64,000 nt of DNA from a virus. Of this stretch, positions 3,637 to 56,666 are shown one piece after another. Position numbers and translations under genes: made by a program. Each line of letters opens with the position of its first letter. Within the stretch, counting starts at the first letter, position 1. The stretch covers positions 4,287 through 68,286 of the IMG/VR virus record IMGVR_UViG_3300021961_000076. One strand, 5' to 3'. Below the pieces are notes generated by a model that was not told where the DNA came from, ran no database searches, and worked only from the letters and a program-made list of their open reading frames with translations.

Positions 3637-4551
3637 TTATTGACGTAAAGTTTTCTTCATTCTTTTTCCCGAATCAGAAAACCACCCTGGGATCATTTCT
3701 TTATGAGTTGCTCGGATAGGATTAATGTCGAGTCCTCCACGACGTGTATATAGACATGCTACCATAAGCTTTTCTGGCTCGTAGGCTTGCATGAGATGAG
3801 TAAAGACCATCTCACAGATCTCTTCGTGGAAGTGAGATACTTGACGGTGACTAACAATATACTTAGCTAATGAAGTAAGCTTGATAGTCTTCTTACCTTC
3901 CATATGGATATAAACATCACCCCAGTCTGGTTGGTTGGTTACTCGGCAGTTACTACGTAGAAGATTAGAATGAACCTTTGTAGTAACTGAAAAAGGAAGG
4001 TCTCCTCCTACCTCTAACTGAGAAGCGTCTGAATGGAAAGCTGTAAATTCTAGCTCGTCTAGGTTAACACTTGCTGCTAGATCGGCAAAGCCATCAAAAG
4101 CATACTCTGCTCCATAATCGTTACCAAAGAACGTACAAGCAACAAAACCTCCTAGCAGTTCAGTAAGATCAGCAGATACTGTCTTTTCAATCTGCTTGAT
4201 ACATTCCTTAGCTGTTTCGCCCATTGGAGTCATATTCAAAGAGTTTAGATACAATTTGATTGACTTAGACTCAACGTGATACTCTGAATCAGCAGGACAT
4301 ACAATCTTAAGCATACCTGCTACAGGTTGTCCTTTCTTAGTGATGGCTGATACTTCATAAGCGTTCCAGCTATCTACTCCTACGAAAGGTAAGTTACCTT
4401 CTTCAATGCCGTAAGCTTCTCTGTTTAAATAACGAGGTACTGCTACTAGCAACTCTGGGTCGTAGATAGCTTTGTAGCCTTCTCCTCCTACTTTACCGAG
4501 GTGCTTATTCGCAATCTCGACAACAGCATTGTAGTTTTTTACTTCTTCCAT
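3637..4551 (-). CDS. queF: NADPH-dependent preQ0 reductase, long bimodular form
   Basis: ESKSIKLYLNS QueF motif; catalytic SNCRVTNQPDWG; FHEE; YTRRGGLDINP. Confidence 0.93.
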   Translation of the reverse strand: MEEVKNYNAVVEIANKHLGKVGGEGYKAIYDPELLVAVPRYLNREAYGIEEGNLPFVGVDSWNAYEVSAITKKGQPVAGMLKIVCPADSEYHVESKSIKLYLNSLNMTPMGETAKECIKQIEKTVSADLTELLGGFVACTFFGNDYGAEYAFDGFADLAASVNLDELEFTAFHSDASQLEVGGDLPFSVTTKVHSNLLRSNCRVTNQPDWGDVYIHMEGKKTIKLTSLAKYIVSHRQVSHFHEEICEMVFTHLMQAYEPEKLMVACLYTRRGGLDINPIRATHKEMIPGWFSDSGKRMKKTLRQ

Positions 4552-6607: not shown

Positions 6608-7108
6608 TTACTTAGAGTTTTTTAGCTCTTCTTCAGTAAAGAACTGTTTAAGATTAGGTGCGAAGTAATTAATGGACTTCATAACTTTATCATCTGCCTT
6701 GCGGTAAACTACATAACGGTTACCTACCTTACGAAAATAACAATCGCCGTGTTCTTTTTCTCGTTTCTCTATAGTGTCCATTGCTTCTTGTAGAGTAGCA
6801 CAACTCTTAGACATATTCGAGGCCTGAACTTCTTTATAAGCAGGTATTAATTTATCTTTGAGTCCAAATACCATTGTAGCATTACCTACAGCTACGTAAA
6901 GTAGATCGCAGATAGCGTCTAGTACCTCTACGATATCTTTCTCTTCGATAGCGTGAGCTAGTTCGTCTGTCTCTTCCTTAATAAAGTTAACGACAAAGTC
7001 AGTTAGCTTTTTATCATTAGGAATGATAGGAGTATAGTTATTCGGCTTACCGAACGTCTTGTTGAATACTTCTACTTCATCAACAAATTTTACTCGTACT
7101 TTTTTCAT
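6608..7108 (-). CDS. All-alpha NTP pyrophosphohydrolase (MazG/PRA-PH-like), candidate dGTPase
   Basis: EETDEL...EVLDAICDLLYV and EVQASNMSK motifs. Confidence 0.85.
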   Translation of the reverse strand: MKKVRVKFVDEVEVFNKTFGKPNNYTPIIPNDKKLTDFVVNFIKEETDELAHAIEEKDIVEVLDAICDLLYVAVGNATMVFGLKDKLIPAYKEVQASNMSKSCATLQEAMDTIEKREKEHGDCYFRKVGNRYVVYRKADDKVMKSINYFAPNLKQFFTEEELKNSK

Positions 7109-7815
7109 TTACAAGAATAACCTTTTACAAATTCATAAAATTCTGCTCGTGCTGAGTCTTCTTCCATAAAGCTCTTAGATAGCTTAGATGTCTTCATAGA
7201 AGCTCCTGCATGCTTAGTACCTCGACAAGATACACAGTTGTGGGTTGCTTCTACCATTACAGCTACTCCTACATTACCCTCACACACAGTATCGACTGCG
7301 TTGTGGATAGCTACAGTAAGCTGCTCTTGAATAGCGCCTCTACGGCCAAAGTGCTCTACAATACGATTGAGCTTAGATAGACCGATTACCTTACCTCCAG
7401 GACCTGGAATGTAAGCGATATGTACTCGACCTTGAATGGTCTGGTGGTGGTGAGAACACATAGAGGTTAAAGGAATATTACCTTCGAATACAATACCGTC
7501 ATAACCATCAGCAGGGAAGGCCGTGATCTCAGGCATAGGATTGAAACGTCCTGCCCATAAGTCATTCACATACGCCTTAGCCACTCGACGAGGAGTATCT
7601 GATGAGTTAGGATCATTACGCCAATCACATCCTAGAGCATCTAGGAATTCACCAAATGCCTTAGCAGCATTCTCAATGATATTAAACCTCTCCTGGTCTG
7701 TTAAGTTCATAGAGGTCATAGAGTGAACTCGGAACTTCTCTGCTAGTTGAGCGGAGATACCATTAGCGAACCCGGCTTGAGCGAGTTCTACATCATAACG
7801 TTTCTTTTCTGCCAT
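7105..7815 (-). CDS. folE: GTP cyclohydrolase I
   Basis: TPRRVAK, SMCSHH, GLSKLNRIV, IQEQLT, HNCVSCRG. Confidence 0.96.
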   Translation of the reverse strand: MAEKKRYDVELAQAGFANGISAQLAEKFRVHSMTSMNLTDQERFNIIENAAKAFGEFLDALGCDWRNDPNSSDTPRRVAKAYVNDLWAGRFNPMPEITAFPADGYDGIVFEGNIPLTSMCSHHHQTIQGRVHIAYIPGPGGKVIGLSKLNRIVEHFGRRGAIQEQLTVAIHNAVDTVCEGNVGVAVMVEATHNCVSCRGTKHAGASMKTSKLSKSFMEEDSARAEFYEFVKGYSCK

Positions 7816-7818
7816 ATA

Positions 7819-7849
7819 ATTTGTTTTTTGAGGTGGTGCTTCGACACCT
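7819..7849 (-). ncRNA. preQ1-I riboswitch-like aptamer in the folE leader
   Basis: AGGUG-UCGAAGCAC-CACCU-CAAAAAACAAAU: 5-bp P1, loop starting UCG and ending in C, A-rich tail with a C; close to the T. tengcongensis class I aptamer; ends a few nt before the ATG. Confidence 0.7.
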
Positions 7850-7854
7850 TTTTA

Positions 7855-7885
7855 TAATATACGAAAACTATTTCAGAGTGCAAAC
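7855..7885 (-). promoter_or_regulatory. Early-type promoter for the folE unit
   Basis: Minus strand GTTTG-N-TTTTCGTATATTA immediately upstream of the aptamer. Confidence 0.65.
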
Positions 7886-8379
7886 ACATCTCTGTAATTT
7901 CTTGCATAACCTTTCTCATTATCCATTCCAAAGCCTATTACCCATTCATCATCAATAGTAAATGCATGGTATGATTTCTGTTTAGGGATAGGTGAGGTTG
8001 CTCTAATAAGCAAGCTAACAATCGAGATAGAGGCTGGATGTTTAACTTCTAGGTATTCAATTACTGCTTTCATAGTATTACCTGTATCGTAGATATCATC
8101 TACCAGATATACGTGCTTACCTTTGATAGGAGTTTCCAGATCTTTCATAATCTGAATATCTCCTTGCTTCTTTTTACCTACATAAGATTTCACTCTCATA
8201 AAGTCACACTCTACATCAATAGGCATGCTCCTAACTAGATCTGCATAGAACATAAATGCTCCGTTTAACAAACCTACCATAACTACTGGTGTTTTATCTC
8301 CTCTGTGATCATCGGCAATCTGTTTACCGATAATTTTAGTTCGGATATCAATATCCTTAGCGTTCAATAACAGTTGCAT
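7873..8379 (-). CDS. hpt: Hypoxanthine/guanine phosphoribosyltransferase
   Basis: GLLNGAFMFYADL, VKSY, PRPP loop LVDDIYDTGNT, WVIGFGMD...RN. Confidence 0.9.
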   Translation of the reverse strand: MQLLLNAKDIDIRTKIIGKQIADDHRGDKTPVVMVGLLNGAFMFYADLVRSMPIDVECDFMRVKSYVGKKKQGDIQIMKDLETPIKGKHVYLVDDIYDTGNTMKAVIEYLEVKHPASISIVSLLIRATSPIPKQKSYHAFTIDDEWVIGFGMDNEKGYARNYRDVFAL

Positions 8380-8388
8380 ATTTTGGTT

Positions 8389-9213
8389 TTAAAAATCGTA
8401 GTTAGCACCTAATGTAATAAAGTATGGGATCTCTTTTATATAACCTAGCTCTATATCCGAAACGTCATAATCAAGTGCGCTTCTTAGTTTAGTTGCAAAG
8501 GAGAATGTATCTGTAACTTTATAACCTATTGATACTCCGTAGTACAGATTCATATTAAAATCATTCCAGTACCATAAATCAATCTCATTTACCGCATCTT
8601 CATATAAGGTAAAGTAATGTGTTCGGATATCAGTTAGTAGGAATACTTCTGGTCTTAGTATCCAATGGTTTAACTCCCACTCTTTCATTCCAATCAACAT
8701 TAGACTGTAAGTTTGATTTACAGCTGCATCATAGAATTCACCACCTAATTCAAAATCATCCCAGCTATAATCATTCACAAATAAAGTATATCCAATCTTT
8801 GTCGAATTTTTTTCATACATCTGGTTAAAGTATGGGGATATAGTTAGAGCATCTGGCGTATATCCAGAATTAGATAGGGTAATTGAGTAGTTATTGGTTC
8901 TCTTTAGCCCGCTGCTAAACTCTTTAACTCTGCCGTAGTTGTATCCAACTTTACCGTATTTGAATGATGGGGTATATGAATAAAAGATTCCATTTGTATG
9001 CTTTCCACTTTCCCACTCATATGCTAAGTTGAAACTAAATATAGTAAACTCACCTAAATAACCTAATGTTATATTTGAACTACTGATGATGTCGTTGTTC
9101 AGTTCAACATAAGTTACACTAGTCAGTTCTGAGTTAGCTTCTGCTCCTTCGTTAGATTGGCCAAACACCCACCCAAAGTGTAGCAGTAGTATAAGTGTTA
9201 GTATTCTTTTCAT
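8389..9213 (-). CDS. Putative outer-membrane beta-barrel protein
   Basis: Sec signal peptide, alternating aromatic beta-strands, C-terminal beta-signal-like YFITLGANYDF. Confidence 0.65.
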   Translation of the reverse strand: MKRILTLILLLHFGWVFGQSNEGAEANSELTSVTYVELNNDIISSSNITLGYLGEFTIFSFNLAYEWESGKHTNGIFYSYTPSFKYGKVGYNYGRVKEFSSGLKRTNNYSITLSNSGYTPDALTISPYFNQMYEKNSTKIGYTLFVNDYSWDDFELGGEFYDAAVNQTYSLMLIGMKEWELNHWILRPEVFLLTDIRTHYFTLYEDAVNEIDLWYWNDFNMNLYYGVSIGYKVTDTFSFATKLRSALDYDVSDIELGYIKEIPYFITLGANYDF

Positions 9214-9216
9214 TTA

Positions 9217-9462
9217 TCAATTCATTCCACCACCTCTACCTTCGTCTTGAGTTGGTTGTGATTCTGCTTTTTGTTCTTTCTCTTGTTGTTTTACCTTTGC
9301 ATTTTCAGCTGCCTTTACTTTGGTAGTGTTTAAGGATTCTACCTTTTGAGTTTCCTTATCAGTTCTCTGAACCGATTGGGCTGGATCACCGCTAATAGGA
9401 ACTGTCACCGTACAAGCGGATAAGGTAAGTATTATTGTAGGTATAATCCAGAACTTTCTCAT
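9217..9462 (-). CDS. Small lipoprotein
   Basis: Basic N-terminus, hydrophobic stretch, lipobox LSAC; low-complexity charged tail. Confidence 0.7.
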   Translation of the reverse strand: MRKFWIIPTIILTLSACTVTVPISGDPAQSVQRTDKETQKVESLNTTKVKAAENAKVKQQEKEQKAESQPTQDEGRGGGMN

Positions 9463-10622
9463 TGAATAAGTACTTTTTCTACTCTACCGTTATTATATCT
9501 GATTACATATAATCCTTTAAGTTCGGCCCAATTTATATTTTCTCCCATATAACGACCGTTCCAATCATATACTTTGTATTGCGTATTGAAATCTGCAATA
9601 TTTTCTTCAATTCCAATTGTTGAGTTTACAATCAGAGTAACAAAGTAGTCGTTATTAGAAGAGTTACTGGAAGCTCTTAATACTCCTTTATATGTACCTA
9701 CCTGCAGGTCTGTTAAGTTCCAGGTTGTATTTGAAGCTTGAGTAACATTAACTCCTGGGAAGGTCAAGCTAGTAGAGGTGTAGTTGTTAATTAATACACT
9801 AACGTATAGCGAATCTCCATTAAGCAGGTCTTGAGTAAAAGCAACTGGAGGTACTGGTACGTTAGGAGTAGATCCTGGTTGAGTAATGTATACTTGCTGA
9901 ATTCTATTTACTCCGATCAAGCTTCCGTTTCTATACTCGCTAATTTTATACCCGGTAGCAAATTGACCATTAGTAGTTGGACCCCAAGTAATAGCTCCGT
10001 TTGCGTCTACATAGTATGTACCGTAATTACCTAGTTGAGAGAAAGGAGCTAAGGGTACAAACACTCCATTTGCATACTGATTAAGAGCGTCATCTTTTTC
10101 TACCATTACAGAATCTCCATCAGGATCTACTGCAAAAAGAATTGATGTAGCTGTATCACCAGTAACCCAGTTGATAGGAAGAGGATTTACAATGATAGGA
10201 GCCGAGTTAGGTACTGAGGATTTCTTATAATCTAATCCCATAGTAAAGCTGCTATTCATAGATGAAGCAGCGTTAGTGTGAATACCTCTACAACAGTTTG
10301 TATAAACGTATCGATAATCGCCTGCTGTTAATACTCGGTAGCCGGAATAGATTGCTACGTTAACTCCTTGCCAGGTTGAAGTAACTTGTTGAGTTAAACT
10401 CACTGTAGTATTCTGTTGATAGAACCCATTAGTAAGTTTGTACTCAGTTAAGGTTAGAGAAGTAGGTCCGCTGATACCTTGAGGGTCAGTAAACAGAGTA
10501 ACTGTAATATCTACAGTATCAGAGTATCCGCGCTGGATAGCTTGAGTATATCCTCCTAAGAGGTGTGATGCACTTAGGTTAAATCCTAATGCAAGGGTGA
10601 GTAAGGTTAGTAGTTTTTTCAT
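9459..10622 (-). CDS. Secreted beta-rich protein with a T9SS type-A-like C-terminal sorting domain
   Basis: Signal peptide, then SHLLGG and NCCR motifs seen in Bacteroidota surface proteins; NSAP/DPDGD repeat; C-terminus YKVYDWNGR...KGLYVIR...KVLIQ. Confidence 0.65.
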   Translation of the reverse strand: MKKLLTLLTLALGFNLSASHLLGGYTQAIQRGYSDTVDITVTLFTDPQGISGPTSLTLTEYKLTNGFYQQNTTVSLTQQVTSTWQGVNVAIYSGYRVLTAGDYRYVYTNCCRGIHTNAASSMNSSFTMGLDYKKSSVPNSAPIIVNPLPINWVTGDTATSILFAVDPDGDSVMVEKDDALNQYANGVFVPLAPFSQLGNYGTYYVDANGAITWGPTTNGQFATGYKISEYRNGSLIGVNRIQQVYITQPGSTPNVPVPPVAFTQDLLNGDSLYVSVLINNYTSTSLTFPGVNVTQASNTTWNLTDLQVGTYKGVLRASSNSSNNDYFVTLIVNSTIGIEENIADFNTQYKVYDWNGRYMGENINWAELKGLYVIRYNNGRVEKVLIQ

Positions 10623-11218
10623 CGAATTACGTTTCTACAATTACATTTAAAAGCTTCAAGCTCTGAGGTATCAGGCTTAACATTCTTAAAATAGTAACAT
10701 TCTCGCTTATTTCCAACTTTTAGTTCCTTATAATACCCTACTGGGATAGCAGCATTTGCAGGTACGCGGTTTGGAGTTGCTCCATACTCTACTCTGATAA
10801 AGACTTTAACTTCGTTATCTTTAGCTAATTCTCTCTCACGTACTTCCAACTTCTTCCATACTCCTCTATTAAGAGACTGTTGCTGTAGGCTAGAATTAAC
10901 ATAGGTAAAAGTACTAAGTAGCATATTACGATCGCAGTTAAAAGAGGCGGCAGGAGCCATATGACCTTTATCCCATTCATTAGCTACGTAGTCGTCATTA
11001 TCGGAAGTATGTACTTGCTTCTCTTTATAAAAGTCCATTCCTGATCTAGAGGCTGTACCTGAAGGACACATTACAGTGTAGCGGATAGAGCGAGGTCCTT
11101 CTAAGACTTCTGAGTAGTTAATAATAAAGTTAGGTGTTGTGTAATATACGCTATCTTTTAACTGTGCGTATGTGGTTACTGATAAGAAGAGCAGTAACAG
11201 AGTTGACCATTTTTTCAT
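10619..11218 (-). CDS. Exported DNA/RNA non-specific endonuclease (NucA/EndA family)
   Basis: Signal peptide; WDKGHMAPAA, Q...LNRGVWKKLE, IPVGYYK. Confidence 0.9.
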   Translation of the reverse strand: MKKWSTLLLLFLSVTTYAQLKDSVYYTTPNFIINYSEVLEGPRSIRYTVMCPSGTASRSGMDFYKEKQVHTSDNDDYVANEWDKGHMAPAASFNCDRNMLLSTFTYVNSSLQQQSLNRGVWKKLEVRERELAKDNEVKVFIRVEYGATPNRVPANAAIPVGYYKELKVGNKRECYYFKNVKPDTSELEAFKCNCRNVIR

Positions 11219-12642: not shown

Positions 12643-12818
12643 ACTCGTACTCCGTAACGAAATTCGTGCTTCTCATTTTCTTTTTCTGCTCCTATACCGT
12701 CTAAGGTTAGGTAGCCTAGCTCATACCCGTAGGCACTTAAAGCAGAGATGACTCCTGCTGGGTCAACTACTTTTAAAGCCCAGAGCTGATGTAGGTTTTG
12801 TAAAAATCCGTGTGGCAT
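12639..12818 (-). CDS. Hypothetical 59-aa protein (missing from the ORF track)
   Basis: MPHGFLQNLH...EFRYGVRV*; TAATG coupling with the queE stop and ATGA overlap with the next gene. Confidence 0.6.
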   Translation of the reverse strand: MPHGFLQNLHQLWALKVVDPAGVISALSAYGYELGYLTLDGIGAEKENEKHEFRYGVRV

Positions 12819-13600
12819 TATACTTCGCGTTTAGTGTCAAAGGCAATGATGTGTTCACGGCCTGTAAAATTATAATAGTTATCAGTACACCATTGTATTA
12901 CCATTGGGTAAACTCTGATGAGTTCTTCTCTGTTATCTCCAGGAGGCATAATCCAGATCTTATCTTTAGGTACTTCTAACTCGTCCATGAAGGCACGAAT
13001 CTCATCCCAGGTGTCAGGCATCTCTACCGGATTAACAACCACCTTCATATGGTAGTCTGAATGGTAAGTCATAGACTGCTTGATAGACTCTTTGTTAAGC
13101 CTAAAGCGGTTATGGGTATCAATAAAACGCTGATCTACAACAGACCCAAGAGGCGTAACTGCACCAAGTACAGGAACAGAATTGCTGAACTTAGGACTGA
13201 AGCTAATAAGACCAATAGGGTAATCTGTTTCCAGAAAGGCCGATCCTTCAGTCTCGATAGTAATAACAATACCCCTTTCATTAGCAAAATGTGTTAATTC
13301 ATTTACAATAGCTGGGTGCATGGTAGGTGAACCTCCTGTTAGCATCATCTCCTTAATCTCAGGATGTGCATCATAAATGTCTACGATGTCCTGAAATGAG
13401 TATTTACCTTTCTCTGGGTGAATACTTGTGTACCAGCTATCACACCATCCTCCTTCTCCGAAGTAACAGCGGTGAGTACAGCCTGTAGTACGTACAGCAA
13501 CAGTAGGTCTACCGGCACGGCTACCTTCTGATTGTACGCATGTGTAAAGTTCTACGATAGGTAGAGTCTTACTATAGTCTTCAATTCTCTTAAGCGGCAT
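12818..13600 (-). CDS. queE: 7-carboxy-7-deazaguanine synthase (radical SAM)
   Basis: ELYTCVQSEG..AG.PTV.VR, GCTHRC-x7-CD, LTGGSP, IETEG, SPK; start placed at MPLKR. Confidence 0.92.
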   Translation of the reverse strand: MPLKRIEDYSKTLPIVELYTCVQSEGSRAGRPTVAVRTTGCTHRCYFGEGGWCDSWYTSIHPEKGKYSFQDIVDIYDAHPEIKEMMLTGGSPTMHPAIVNELTHFANERGIVITIETEGSAFLETDYPIGLISFSPKFSNSVPVLGAVTPLGSVVDQRFIDTHNRFRLNKESIKQSMTYHSDYHMKVVVNPVEMPDTWDEIRAFMDELEVPKDKIWIMPPGDNREELIRVYPMVIQWCTDNYYNFTGREHIIAFDTKREV

Positions 13601-14048
13601 AGATTGCTGAGTTTTTGTGGTTTTCCATAAATTTAACTTTAACAACCTTTACGCGACCTTCAGTCTCTAGTTGTACGAAATCGTTTAGCTTGTGGTAAAG
13701 ATATTCTGCAAATTTCTCTGCACCTACTGCCGGTATTACTCTTAATTGAATAATACCTCTAGCGTCTAAATCTACAAAGTCTGACATAGCAGGGTCGTCT
13801 TCTGATACTACGACAGTATGATCAAACATATACTCCATCCACTCTTTAGGTTGACGTCCTTCAATAAGGTTATTAGCACGCTTCATACCTCCGAAGTCCC
13901 ATACCCAGTTTCGATGATCTAAGTCACCTTCAAACGTTACTTCAAACTCTACGTCGTAACCGTGAAGATACTGACAGTGAGTCGTATTTGCTCTCCATTG
14001 ACGGAAGCAAGTACTAAATCCGTCAAACTTCTTTCTACTCTTATACAT
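13590..14048 (-). CDS. queD: 6-carboxy-tetrahydropterin synthase
   Basis: HCQYLHGY, WVWDFG, FDHT, GAEKFA; start placed at MYKSRK. Confidence 0.9.
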   Translation of the reverse strand: MYKSRKKFDGFSTCFRQWRANTTHCQYLHGYDVEFEVTFEGDLDHRNWVWDFGGMKRANNLIEGRQPKEWMEYMFDHTVVVSEDDPAMSDFVDLDARGIIQLRVIPAVGAEKFAEYLYHKLNDFVQLETEGRVKVVKVKFMENHKNSAIYAA

Positions 14049-14304
14049 CTTCTGTAAAGTTTTTATATTGTTCAATATAATGATTTAAAGGCTTAGCTCC
14101 AACTGTACGAGCAAACTCTTTTCCGGACTCGTCTACCAGTACGACTGTTGGTACACTACGGACAGTATATTCCATTGTTAGGAGCTCTTCAGTATCGATA
14201 TTAATCTTCTCTACTGCAATTCCTTGCTCTTTTACTTTCTCCATTGTTGGACCTAACATTCGGCAAGGTCCGCACCAAGGGGCGCTAAAATACAAATACT
14301 TCAT
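14041..14304 (-). CDS. trxA: Thioredoxin
   Basis: WCGPC active site and VRSVPT cis-Pro loop. Confidence 0.93.
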   Translation of the reverse strand: MKYLYFSAPWCGPCRMLGPTMEKVKEQGIAVEKINIDTEELLTMEYTVRSVPTVVLVDESGKEFARTVGAKPLNHYIEQYKNFTEDV

Positions 14305-14576
14305 ACTAATTCTTCTATAATTCCAATTACTTCACTTATAACTAATACAGCAACAGCTGCAGGAATATTTACCAGCAGCAAAAAGTAGCCTCCAATTCGG
14401 ATACCGGATTTAATAAATGAGATGATCTGATGCCATTTTTGATCAGGCATCTTATTGAAGTTTTTAAACTCCTTTGAATACTTAATCTCTTTACCTTTAA
14501 TCTTGTTATAAAGGTCAGGATTAATGATACTGTCTTTAGGGAGGACAGGCTCCGTCAATAACTGTTTTTTTGCCAT
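14301..14576 (-). CDS. Hypothetical membrane protein, first gene after the second aptamer
   Basis: Hydrophobic C-terminal half (IISFIKSGIRIGGYFLLL...IGIIEELV). Confidence 0.65.
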   Translation of the reverse strand: MAKKQLLTEPVLPKDSIINPDLYNKIKGKEIKYSKEFKNFNKMPDQKWHQIISFIKSGIRIGGYFLLLVNIPAAVAVLVISEVIGIIEELV

Positions 14577-14578
14577 AA

Positions 14579-14609
14579 TTGTGTTTTTAAAGTGGTGCTA
14601 CGACACTAT
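14579..14609 (-). ncRNA. Second preQ1-I riboswitch-like aptamer
   Basis: AGUG-UCGUAGCAC-CACU-UUAAAAACACAAU; loop matches the folE copy at 8 of 9 nt while the stem differs but still pairs; ends just before the ATG. Confidence 0.65.
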
Positions 14610-14611
14610 AC

Positions 14612-14651
14612 TAATATAAGAATAAATAGGGAGGGAGACAAGCTCCCCCCT
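14612..14651 (-). promoter_or_regulatory. Early-type promoter overlapping a GC-rich terminator-like hairpin after queC
   Basis: Minus strand GGGGGAG-CTTGT-CTCCCTC...TTCTTATATTAG. Confidence 0.55.
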
Positions 14652-32200: not shown

Positions 32201-32715
32201 TTAGGGCTACCTTCTCCTTTAAAGAAATCAATAAGGGTTGGAATATCTTTTACTTTATATGCAGATGTTTTAGCATCTAAGTACTTAGAATGTCCCCATT
32301 CCAGTAGTGCGGAGTAGCCCGGACGCATAAATAACTGCTCATAGATATTAAGCTGCTCAACTGAATGTATAATAAACTGAACTGTAGCTGTTCTTAAACT
32401 ACCGTACCTGTTGTGGGTATTTAGGTTCATTGAAGTGATACCTGGTTTAGGTCTAATTCCTAAACTTGTGTCCTGATATCCAGCTACTTCGCTTGAACCT
32501 GCTAAATTGATTCCGTTAGTAAGTATATTAAGCCTTGCTAACTCATCAGAGCTACCTACATTAATTGCTGAGGTTAGTTTTATCCACGGCATTTTTTGCA
32601 GAAAAAAGCTATAGTCGCCTTCGACAACTCTATCAGAATTGCCGAGAATCTTTTGGCGAGCTTCTACCTGCTTTACTAATAAGCTATCAATAGGTTTACC
32701 TAAAACAAAACTCAT
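29242..32715 (-). CDS. Baseplate hub-like protein with a C-terminal lysozyme-fold domain
   Basis: PGITS...GSLR.ATV.F, LFMRPG.S.LLEWG, NFSWS; C-terminal LAVMIREQG...NYNFGG; position after the tape measure and LysM-like genes. Confidence 0.65.
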   Translation of the reverse strand: MSFVLGKPIDSLLVKQVEARQKILGNSDRVVEGDYSFFLQKMPWIKLTSAINVGSSDELARLNILTNGINLAGSSEVAGYQDTSLGIRPKPGITSMNLNTHNRYGSLRTATVQFIIHSVEQLNIYEQLFMRPGYSALLEWGHSKYLDAKTSAYKVKDIPTLIDFFKGEGSPKTKTELYGKIDALRKEYNYNYDGMYGLIKNFSWSIQQDGTYACSVDIVSIGSTLESLNINVAVTNSEIQAYSKFAAEIERSNIITKLREEQEIENEGGTVTEVINPDKPTTESDLQLAKLVEEYLTELAGFKQYLLDNKLASQTRGIKLYGYKAAYDQISGVTEASPGNFTKTGNVWYSDEKSFRLIGVKNSPAPTIRIITPPIYYNVKNDELIIVDHTGALSQAKQDNGKGGIQPISLRGGTAVSNKLRLASETYYRLPIESAMLFAETSGGNFQLKLQANQIETLRRMKLGDVEYQAAVHEYVYTLTPIDFEFTVDVGASASETQEKPEDKVPEQEPVDIFEIIATDKEPLQSRIHYILHQAKYKISQDRPASEVKRNGVHTLQDADMKYYKVPSEYRTLRSKSVTIKTGEGTDSTELIYYSYIQLGFLLDTLNTLLPRDGAKGEELFKFHTKKSVTHFIKTLKAFHYSVDTSKCLLPPEQGAVDILSIFVEIDYIGDVVESFYSSGQVRLYDLIDTILKDIVIAIGNFNSFELQYFELDNTFHVVDREILDPDAFKNEYATFSIFGKNSFVRNLNLTSKLSPAIGAQLAIAAQANPESNGIEGTAWKYFNKNLKDRFIEQKVDDVTRRQIVAAEAATAKADKEAKLKDYADVFDYLRATYPEGGTASYYYRRAVESVIPQYATFCQRQLVEQIQGGQDFGFIIPYELSITVDGISGFNVMESFKILDSIIPDSYKANSKNGIGFIVTGIQQAVSTGGWTTTVKAQIYNTNDKGRAGAPIIKDAEQSLSPPPVGDVDPRKNLDKGWEGKEQEFKQTTITYAQAVTAVKAATTNVNLRKAVLAVMIREQGGSNKTIKGFNYNFGGYDITSGGWSFTTFGENISNGFTYATEGGTGLKKAFVSFVSLEKFMAQKVKDFTDKGFDRATNAEECAKVWYEKWNGFGARAHWRNNYQGLKDKYPSQAEYDAYVLENFKPTYTLAAEQFA

Positions 32716-51720: not shown

Positions 51721-51939
51721 TTATACTTCTACCTCTACAACTTTGTACTGTCTGTCTGTAGGATCAGCAGCCTGTAATTCAGCTGCCTTAGCATCGGCTT
51801 CTGCCTGAGTATCAAACTCATCAACAGTATCGTCGTTGTTAAGTTTTTGTACCCAGATCTGTCTTTTAGCCCAGTTAGGGTCATTGGCATCGTAGCCAGC
51901 CGGAATAAGTTGTTTTAAAACTCTATAAGTTGTCGCCAT
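51721..51939 (-). CDS. Hypothetical protein
   Basis: 72-aa ORF in the fibre module. Confidence 0.6.
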   Translation of the reverse strand: MATTYRVLKQLIPAGYDANDPNWAKRQIWVQKLNNDDTVDEFDTQAEADAKAAELQAADPTDRQYKVVEVEV

Positions 51940-52102
51940 CGTTTAGTTTTTTATATGTAATAAGTTGATTAATATACTCCTGTCTTCTTTTGCATCCGCA
52001 ATCAGACTTTCCTCTTGCTTTTGCTATTTTTTGTGCTAATCGATCTATGCCGGTAGCATGAGTGACTCTAGCAATAGTATCTCCTAACCCTTTATCTTCC
52101 AT
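51923..52102 (-). CDS. 59-aa GLGD/CGC-motif protein (missing from the ORF track)
   Basis: MEDKGLGDTIARVTHATGI...DCGCKRRQEYIN. Confidence 0.7.
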   Translation of the reverse strand: MEDKGLGDTIARVTHATGIDRLAQKIAKARGKSDCGCKRRQEYINQLITYKKLNDGDNL

Positions 52103-55994: not shown

Positions 55995-56666
55995 TTATTG
56001 GAATCTTGTTTTTTGTGCTTCGTAGTTTTGTAACACTTCGTCGTCCGATAAAAGCCTTGAATATGATGTATACTTTGCTATACTTCCTTCAAAGGGCCTA
56101 TCGGAGGTGTTCCAAGGAGCAACCCCTAGTCGTATTACACTGCTATTAGGAGTCACCACTCCTGATCTAATGGCAGTATACTTTCTTGCATTTAGCCAAA
56201 AAGTAAGTGCTGTTCCGTTCCAACCTAAGACTATATGAGCCCAAGTATTAAATGCAACAGAAGCTATTCCTCCCCAGTCTTGGTTACTGCTCCCATACGT
56301 AACATACCCCCAGTTACTCCCGTTTATTCGTATAACTCGAGTTGCGCCATACGTACCTCCTCCTCCAAAGCCAGCTACCATTTGATCAGAACCGTCACTA
56401 CTTGGTTTTACCCAAGCTTCTATAGATCCTTGTGAAGTGTGGAAGGTAGAATCTAAGCTAGAAAAATTGATATAATCGTCGGTACCGTCAAAGACCCATA
56501 TCCCGTTATTACTATTTGAAAAAGTAGCGTTAGTTATTGTGCCAGTAGGAGTACTAATCAAATCAGACACAGTAGTACCTGTCCCAGGGTATGAATTTAT
56601 ATCACCTGCATCAATGGCAAAGGTTATTCCACTTGTTACTATTCTAGGATTGTGATGGAGTGACAT
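55995..56666 (-). CDS. LamG-like protein without the insert
   Basis: DAG..NSYPG.G, FDGTDDY, SIEAWVKP, W.HIV..W.G, YSRLLS..EV.QNY. Confidence 0.8.
   Translation of the reverse strand: MSLHHNPRIVTSGITFAIDAGDINSYPGTGTTVSDLISTPTGTITNATFSNSNNGIWVFDGTDDYINFSSLDSTFHTSQGSIEAWVKPSSDGSDQMVAGFGGGGTYGATRVIRINGSNWGYVTYGSSNQDWGGIASVAFNTWAHIVLGWNGTALTFWLNARKYTAIRSGVVTPNSSVIRLGVAPWNTSDRPFEGSIAKYTSYSRLLSDDEVLQNYEAQKTRFQ

Follow-up and report, generated by a model that had tools for sequence, protein, structure and literature searches.

Does the short leader of folE in a phage DNA-modification cluster sense a product of the very pathway that this gene opens? The question is raised by a 64,000-nucleotide (nt) stretch of DNA, here called the window, that covers positions 4,287–68,286 of the IMG/VR virus record IMGVR_UViG_3300021961_000076 and in which the minus-strand open reading frame (ORF) 7105–7815 encodes GTP cyclohydrolase I (Pfam PF01227, E 4e-43). 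An original prediction, made from the letters of the leader, had read it as a riboswitch resembling those of class I for preQ1 (preQ1-I). That reading is supported by every computational check applied to it except the search with the Rfam family model RF00522; ligand binding and translational repression are predictions of it. The element is probably a minimal preQ1-I riboswitch variant that works independently of a Shine-Dalgarno (SD) sequence and places phage DNA hypermodification under feedback control.

On the minus strand, to which the window coordinates given here refer, the leader reads as originally written and ends at the folE ATG (7815–7813). The element, copy 1 of a motif that recurs in the window, occupies 7816..7849 and is assigned from its sequence, from the score of the covariance model described below, and from stem covariation. 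The 5′ strand of its first stem (P1) is AGGUG at 7849–7845, with the four conserved base pairs (bp) using 7848–7845, and is followed by the loop UCGAAGCAC at 7844–7836 (U7844, C7843, G7842, A7841, A7840, G7839, C7838, A7837, C7836) and by the 3′ strand CACCU at 7835–7831. The remaining 15 nt, CAAAAAACAAAUUAU at 7830–7816, comprise an A-rich segment (L3) at 7830–7824, C7823 as the candidate pairing partner of G7839, and a tail at 7822–7816. The final loop base, C7836, is invariant in all 55 distinct instances of the motif collected below and is the candidate specificity cytosine, equivalent to C15 of the Thermoanaerobacter tengcongensis aptamer in the role described for that residue (PMC7641330).

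The leader lies within a spacer of 57 nt that separates the stop of a phosphoribosyltransferase (PRTase) gene (7873–8379, minus strand) from the folE ATG. An early promoter had been proposed upstream of it, and a sigma-70-type scan does find the promoter-like sequence TTTGCA-17-TATATT running from 7884 to 7856. The whole promoter-like region (7854..7884) can also be described as TTTG at 7884–7881, a 19-nt spacer, and TATATTAT at 7861–7854, and it stops 4 nt ahead of the first stem base, A7849. Related leaders keep a TATATT or TAAATT ahead of the motif.

A second copy of the motif is found at 14577..14607, again on the minus strand, where the sequence reads AGUG-UCGUAGCAC-CACU-UUAAAAAC-ACAAUU-AUG. 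Here P1 joins A14607–G14604 with C14594–U14591, the loop UCGUAGCAC spans 14603–14595, L3 is UUAAAAA at 14590–14584, and C14583 and a tail at 14582–14577 lead to the ATG at 14576. The window contains the core pattern GTCGNAGNNCCNNNNNAAAAA two times, where 100 shuffles give an expectation of 0.00. The covariance model R1, which was built from the 55 distinct instances, returns two strong matches only in the 64-kb window, copy 1 at 48.0 bits (7814–7854) and copy 2 at 54.4 bits (14573–14613), and the next best match scores 12.1 bits.

Beyond the window, the distribution of the motif was examined in several ways, two of which made no use of the stem. In 80 IMG/VR loci gathered by FolE protein similarity alone, with no RNA pattern, the motif stands immediately ahead of folE in 22 (R1 scores of 36.8–56.5 bits, with nothing else at E<=1), and the stems of these 22 are GGUG/CACC, GGAG/CUCC or AGUG/CACU. 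Viral contigs were also scanned with the stem left unconstrained and with TATATT upstream, the loop and the A-run as the sole fixed elements of the pattern, which gave at least 118 loci. Among the matches listed, 117 loci were re-matched, of which 69 have at least four contiguous stem pairs and 48 have zero to three (none in 35); stem complementarity in these listed matches is thus bimodal, where four pairs would arise by chance in about 2%. One candidate, L135, which is rich in G-U pairs and lacks a start-codon context, was dropped as a chance match; two others with one additional loop U (L097 and L153) are true instances. The 55 distinct instances that were left after de-duplication had been selected for a 4-bp stem, so that the percentage paired among them is partly a matter of construction, and the collecting patterns had also demanded the C of the loop, the G that precedes UCG, the U that follows the stem, and the A-run before the tail C. 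The FolE-anchored set and the bimodality of the stem-free scan are free of the bias toward 4-bp stems.

Many phage contigs carry both copies with differing stems, as in the window (GGUG and AGUG) and in L102, L107 and L155 (UGAG and AGUG). The 160-kb genome of the cultured phage immuto has a single copy, before folE, at positions 32358–32398 of its record (56.7 bits), and Cellulophaga phage phi13:1 has none. Across 185,579 species genomes, the pattern GTGTCGNAGNACCACNNNAAAAAC, which covers GUG-type stems only, gave 6 matches, and a single one (L209) stands in the context of the motif. This contig (NYWG01000135.1, 5.9 kb), from a metagenome-assembled genome of Verrucomicrobiales, carries an AGUG-type motif and a small ORF in a typical phage context and is probably a mis-binned phage fragment. 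A BLAST search of cultured phages with the 41-nt copy 2 sequence returned only matches at E>=2, the best of which (Escherichia phage Bas82) is antisense in a structural module and was set aside as chance.

Structural evidence comes from variation in the stem. Five stem haplotypes are found among the 55 instances, all of them Watson-Crick: AGUG/CACU in 24, GGUG/CACC in 12, GGAG/CUCC in 9, UGAG/CUCA in 7, and UGUG/CACA in 3. Two of the four pairs change on both sides. Stem pair 7-24 is A-U in 24 instances, G-C in 21 and U-A in 10, and stem pair 9-22 is U-A in 39 and A-U in 16; both G-C pairs are constant, and no cell of the alignment is unpaired. The covariation score of 0.425 compares with 0.126 +/- 0.022 for shuffled alignments and was reached by none of 500 shuffles, and registers slid along the sequence give at most 0.18. 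The motif is not a chance hairpin. An alignment of related folE leaders had been proposed as a check, and in it the stem covaries while the loop is kept, which rules out that stem and loop lack conservation in related phages.

Thermodynamic prediction points to a different register. For copy 1, ViennaRNA prefers the hairpin GGUGU-CGAA-GCACC, at -6.2 kcal/mol, over the stem first proposed, at -3.9 kcal/mol. The ViennaRNA register shows no double change in the alignment and leaves 17–34 of the 55 rows unpaired at three of its five pairs, so that covariation in related sequences favors the register of the original prediction. The source of the competing hairpin can be seen in GUG-type stems (7845–7836, and the matching bases in copy 2), in which the loop CAC duplicates the 3′ strand and makes GGUGU-CGAA-GCACC stabler than P1. 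This alternative is absent from GAG-type stems and could bias the ligand-free state in some phages.

Where enough downstream DNA is available, in 51 instances, the motif always heads a 7-deazaguanine operon (folE, folE2 or queD-queE) on its own strand, as judged by blastx against the window proteins, and never an unrelated operon; the other four have fewer than 62 nt of downstream DNA. The gene next to the motif is FolE in 29 of the 55 and FolE2 in 1, QueD follows directly in 3, a small membrane ORF and then QueD (with QueE where the DNA reaches) follow in 16, and in 2 a lipoprotein-like ORF and then a small ORF precede QueD-QueE. In the FolE2 case (L193:3064-4062, minus strand; PF02649, E 1e-65), the leader has been retained through non-orthologous replacement of the first enzyme. 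The first downstream ATG lies 5–12 nt past the tail C in 54 of the 55 instances, the outlier (L022) being an upstream ATG out of context.

The loop and the tail of the motif resemble those of preQ1-I. The motif consists of a 4-bp stem, a loop U-C-G-N-A-G-N-N-C, and an A-run followed by C, about 31–34 nt in all. Invariant in the 55 instances are the stem-closing G, the loop bases U, G, A and G, the C that ends the loop and the C that opens the 3′ strand, and the A-run, with the equivalent of loop C7 present in 54; an A-run of at least four directly precedes the tail C in every instance, and an A follows that C in 54. In the account given of the T. tengcongensis aptamer (PMC7641330), the ligand is paired to C15 and has its edge read by U6 and A29, and the conserved G5 contacts its aminomethyl group. 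The same source describes C7-G11-C30 as the ceiling triple, a helix S2 in which G11-C30 and C9-G33 flank A10-A32 and G8-A31, and an A-rich L3 that occupies the first stem's minor groove.

Motif bases map one to one onto G5, U6, C7, G8, A10, G11, C15, C16, A29, C30 and A31, all invariant or nearly so, and the named residues, matched by number, vary only at position 9 and its partner. The closing G-C pair and the specificity-C equivalent are found in 55 of 55 and in immuto too, with the same bases in the 22 FolE-anchored loci; the equivalents of U6 and A29 and the A-rich L3 are likewise present, and the FolE-anchored set agrees. All bases of the pocket ceiling are in place (54 of 55 instances have the C, and 54 the A behind the tail C; the G, A and G do not vary, and the tail C is present), an invariance that hides any pairing covariation. 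The resemblance to T. tengcongensis originally noticed in a UCG.AG loop, a C at its end and an A-rich tail is borne out by these invariant bases and by their match to the pocket residues of that aptamer.

Genuine elements for comparison were taken from RF00522 matches in 151 Clostridia genomes. Two of them (L224 and L225) have the loop UCGCAG, lie 6–7 nt before QueT transporter genes (PF06177), and can be aligned to the phage motif column by column as G-UCG-N-AG, C-C, A-run, C. Their loop has 10 nt (3 + C), whereas that of the phage has 9 (2 + C), so that the loop described at the outset as 1 nt shorter is indeed so by this measure. Their stem has five pairs against four conserved in the phage, their L3 has 8–9 nt against 7 nt in 43 of the 55 instances, and the AAGG(A)GG that follows their C is absent from the phage motif. 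The distal P2 pair or pairs that sequester the SD (C9-G33 in T. tengcongensis) are not conserved among the phage instances, and an SD-like GGAG is found in L037 only.

More broadly, the phage motif has in common with type II preQ1-I (T. tengcongensis, B. subtilis; RF00522) a hairpin loop opening U-C-G-N-A-G and ending in C, a stem closed by G-C, C-A behind the 3′ A-run, a start codon within a few nt downstream, and a link to 7-deazaguanines. It differs in occurring in phages of probable Flavobacteriia rather than in Firmicutes, and in targeting folE and queD/queE for DNA modification rather than tRNA-queuosine salvage or synthesis. The type III aptamer of the E. coli yhhQ leader, as described in PMC10622847, is likewise compact, with a short loop and a 3-nt L2, and can be likened to the phage motif in its single ligand site with a specificity C and in its translational control; its dimensions are a precedent for the motif's small size. 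Its loop, in contrast, is pyrimidine-rich and its AAGG tail is the SD and contacts the ligand, whereas the phage loop is of the type II-like form UCGNAG and no SD is present. Taken as a whole, the phage element appears to share the preQ1-I pocket, is missed by the family model, and departs from the described class in the length of P1 and in the distal, SD-sequestering P2 pair.

Several results weigh against this reading, among them those from the database models. RF00522, which has a gathering threshold of 39 bits, was run on the window at that threshold, on 7700–7950 at E<=10, on the whole virus record, on five related records, and on immuto; it reports neither window copy nor any related leader, so that the search suggested with the original prediction has no match at any copy, where its genome searches score first-look candidates only and some leaders were possibly never scored. 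Elsewhere in these records it gives weak matches only, at most 15.3 bits. The sole match in the virus record, at 51937–51983 of the window (minus strand; record 56223–56269; 13.8 bits, E 0.14), is an A-rich sequence like AUAAAAAACUAAAC with no convincing stem and was discarded as chance. The genuine Clostridia elements L224 and L225 themselves score 30–31 bits, below the threshold, which shows that RF00522 is insensitive to such sequences and misses some true members; the phage motif scores lower still. The reverse search fares no better: R1, run on 13 Clostridia loci with RF00522 matches, misses the true elements apart from one match of 11.5 bits, its best on any of them. RF00522 and R1 bridge the two families in neither direction.

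No other Rfam family offers an identity. With Rfam 15, no family reaches its gathering score in the whole window, and at E<=10 the region 7700–7950 gives only three unrelated chance matches. The THF-II riboswitch, or folE motif, is likewise a cis-element in folE leaders; here no THF-type match appears at E<=10 in 7700–7950, and the position of copy 2 ahead of queD-queE suggests 7-deazaguanine rather than folate. In a separate search, the possibility that the que cluster of Streptococcus phage Dp-1 has a preQ1 riboswitch was tried and dropped, since the first 6 kb gave no Rfam preQ1 match at E<=1.

Further points against the reading concern the structure itself. Of the 5-bp P1 first proposed, the register stands on covariation, but only 4 bp are conserved, the fifth pair, A7849-U7831, being present in 7 of the 55 instances, copy 1 included; P1 has 5–6 bp in all three preQ1-I types (PMC10622847). 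The lone stem is weak, at -3.9 kcal/mol in copy 1 and -0.6 kcal/mol in copy 2, and GUG-type stems have the stabler competing hairpin described above. The tail C that was proposed to pair with the loop G is there, and both bases are invariant, but P2 has no support from covariation; loop position 4 against the tail positions likewise gives no significant covariation in the 55 instances. The equivalent of C9-G33 can pair in 36 of 55 instances, where about 32 are expected from base frequencies. The motif is also absent from 58 of the 80 related folE loci.

The covariation of the stem is open to a second interpretation, as, in the absence of any G-U pair, it would fit a DNA inverted repeat too. 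The alternative is a DNA operator, formed by the repeat GNNG-N9-CNNC just past the -7 box, at which a dimeric transcription factor would repress both promoters. A repeat that starts 3–16 nt after TATATT would overlap the likely transcription start, and concerted change of half-sites among exclusively Watson-Crick variants would fit a palindrome as well. The half-sites, however, are only 4 bp, and conservation is strongest not in the arms but in the asymmetric 9-nt spacer and the one-sided A-run and C. Orientation is fixed as well, with a 7-deazaguanine gene on the motif strand in each of the 51 informative instances, and it is the spacing to the ATG that is constrained while that to the TATATT box varies (3–16 nt). 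A DNA operator is accordingly judged quite unlikely.

AAAAAC lies within 25 nt upstream of the ATG at 8 of the 67 window ORFs of at least 80 aa, so that the tail alone is not distinctive, and the mean A fraction in the 25 nt upstream of ORFs is 0.40. Since A-rich leaders are thus common and bacterial mRNAs can be stabilized by 5′ hairpins, the motif might be a constitutive 5′ stem-loop with an ordinary A-rich initiation region, kept for mRNA stability or initiation and involving no switching. Such a stabilizer would need no invariant 9-nt loop sequence, and the copy 2 stem is too weak to protect an mRNA. In addition, the motif is limited to two 7-deazaguanine operons in the window and is kept when folE2 replaces folE; this explanation is very unlikely.

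In the main rival explanation, the element is an RNA operator for a phage or host protein, of the kind bound by T4 RegA or gp32 or of a PyrR-like PRTase, which would coordinate both operons without direct sensing of a metabolite. The stem, too weak to fold stably alone, would fit such a role. A short hairpin with an A-rich stretch by the start codon is typical of translational operators, and the PRTase gene stands directly upstream of the folE copy both here and in immuto. PyrR is an RNA-binding regulator with the PRTase fold. On the hypoxanthine PRTase model TIGR01203, however, the protein encoded at 7873–8379 reaches 149 bits, compared with 26–27 bits on PyrR models; a PyrR-type attenuator was rejected because the neighboring PRTase is of the hypoxanthine type and not PyrR-like. 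Copy 2 is not beside the PRTase gene, no candidate regulator gene emerged, and the one-for-one match to residues of the preQ1-I ligand pocket would be unexplained if the motif were a protein operator. A protein-bound operator is for these reasons improbable.

How would a preQ1-I variant of this form work? In the proposed mechanism, an aptamer of about 31–34 nt would lie at or near the 5′ end of two mRNAs, folE-dpdA-dpdN-queF and small-ORF-trx-queD-queE. A free 7-deazaguanine base from the pathway, with preQ1 the likeliest and preQ0 possible, would bind this aptamer by pairing with the last loop C, while the ligand would be read by the U of the loop and the final A of the A-run. Above the ligand the loop G would pair with the tail C, and the A-run would dock in the minor groove of the stem. 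The H-type pseudoknot formed in this way would capture the A-rich, unstructured leader so that the 30S subunit could not load, and translation of folE and queD/queE would fall when the base accumulates faster than DpdA inserts it into DNA. Bacteroidota mRNAs naturally lack SD sequences, and their ribosomes do not use SD pairing and need an A-rich leader; an expression platform that consists solely of an A-rich single strand would suit them. The sequence from the motif to the ATG contains no terminator, which makes control at translation the likelier mode.

Two published observations bear on the physiology and the ligand. The DNA of immuto is reported to contain 345,000 fdPreQ1 per 10^6 nucleotides, with no dG peak detected (PMC10516641); replacement of G on this scale implies that the flux from GTP is very large, and control by feedback at both folE and queD/queE would be physiologically sensible. 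The type II aptamer is described as discriminating preQ1 from preQ0 only 17-fold (PMC10622847). A more far-reaching version of the proposal is possible though doubtful. It holds that the element is the smallest natural riboswitch (a 4-bp stem, ~31 nt), a phage-borne, SD-free offshoot of preQ1-I that hides an A-rich, "Kozak-like" leader and is perhaps tuned to preQ0 or to the formylated DNA base, so that one sensor at two operons matches synthesis of the hypermodified base to DNA replication.

The genes behind copy 1 were as originally proposed. folE (7105..7815) is the first gene of the operon folE-mazG-like-65aa-dpdA-dpdN-kinase-queF, which runs on the minus strand from 7815 down to 3637, and the downstream series NTPase-dpdA-dpdN-kinase-queF is confirmed by Pfam together with BLASTP against immuto. 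A MazG/PRA-PH-like NTP pyrophosphohydrolase, an AAA_28 kinase and QueF are among these genes. The 275-aa operon protein has no Pfam match and is 65% identical by BLASTP to the annotated DpdA of immuto, and the PurN-like formyltransferase is 58% identical to immuto DpdN. The PRTase gene at 7873–8379, directly upstream of folE here and in immuto, is hypoxanthine-PRTase-like, with a TIGR01203 score just short of the cut-off of 150 bits. Together the PRTase, the kinase and the MazG-like enzyme hint that a purine or 7-deazapurine base may be handled at the level of nucleotides, a role outside the published base-exchange model.

Metatranscriptome contigs of relatives (90–99% alike) cover both leaders, although transcript starts and strand are invisible in them and carry-over of DNA is possible. 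Three of them, X1 (7637–7965), X2 (7787–8118) and X3 (7812–7959), span the PRTase gene, the leader and folE and are uninformative on the transcription start.

Copy 2 heads an operon of four minus-strand genes (12818..14576), which are, from ORF calls and Pfam, a 91-aa membrane ORF (14301–14576), thioredoxin (14041–14304; PF00085), QueD (13590–14075; PF01242) and QueE (12818–13645), a radical SAM enzyme (PF04055). By analogy with copy 1, TATATTAG at 14611..14618, 3 nt upstream of the stem, is a putative promoter -7-like box. Further upstream, directly after the stop of queC (PF06508), a hairpin rich in G+C (GGGGGGAG..CUCCCUCC) with a U-rich stretch behind it was picked out by eye at 14621..14650. 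This hairpin is likely an intrinsic terminator that separates queC from the copy 2 transcript, in which case queC would be transcribed apart from queD-queE and not behind any copy of the motif.

The membrane ORF belongs to a family of small proteins (61–107 aa) that is the first gene after the motif in 16 of the 55 instances, with QueD always next. Members include window 14301–14576 (minus strand), L107:6973-7176, L155:2246-2470 and others; they share a conserved H-Q-x-(I/V/L)-S-F-(I/L)-K-S and a hydrophobic C-terminus, and the family has no Pfam, NCBIfam or PHROG match. Between the two 7-deazaguanine operons, on the minus strand at 8389–11218, lie four further ORFs. Three of them (274, 387 and 199 aa) have signal-peptide-like N-termini, and the fourth, of 81 aa, has a hydrophobic N-terminus and a Cys; the 274- and 387-aa ORFs, the two examined, have no Pfam match. 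A similar ORF of 190–207 aa is found at the equivalent place in related contigs.

Riboswitches carried by phages have precedents. Glutamine (glnA-motif) riboswitches of marine myophages and cyanophages, described in PMC9004378 as rare in phages, are likewise carried by lytic phages; they differ from the present motif in ligand, fold and genes, and none is linked to DNA modification. A literature search, mostly outside subscription journals, found no phage preQ1-type element and no regulator of phage 7-deazaguanine genes, and the main text of the paper on the immuto fdPreQ1 pathway contains none of the strings "riboswitch," "regulat" or "promoter" (PMC10516641).

How a phage controls the flux of GTP into full replacement of G has so far been undescribed. 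If the reading given here is true, the element would be the first riboswitch tied to DNA hypermodification, acting at both entry points of the pathway, folE and queD/queE, and the first adaptation of the preQ1-I architecture to ribosomes that ignore SD sequences, found across a whole phage lineage missed by the Rfam preQ1 model. A copy of the motif is available in a cultured phage-host pair, immuto with Flavobacterium sp. LMO8, and the size of the aptamer suits it both to quick biophysics and to use as a minimal genetic part for Bacteroidota.

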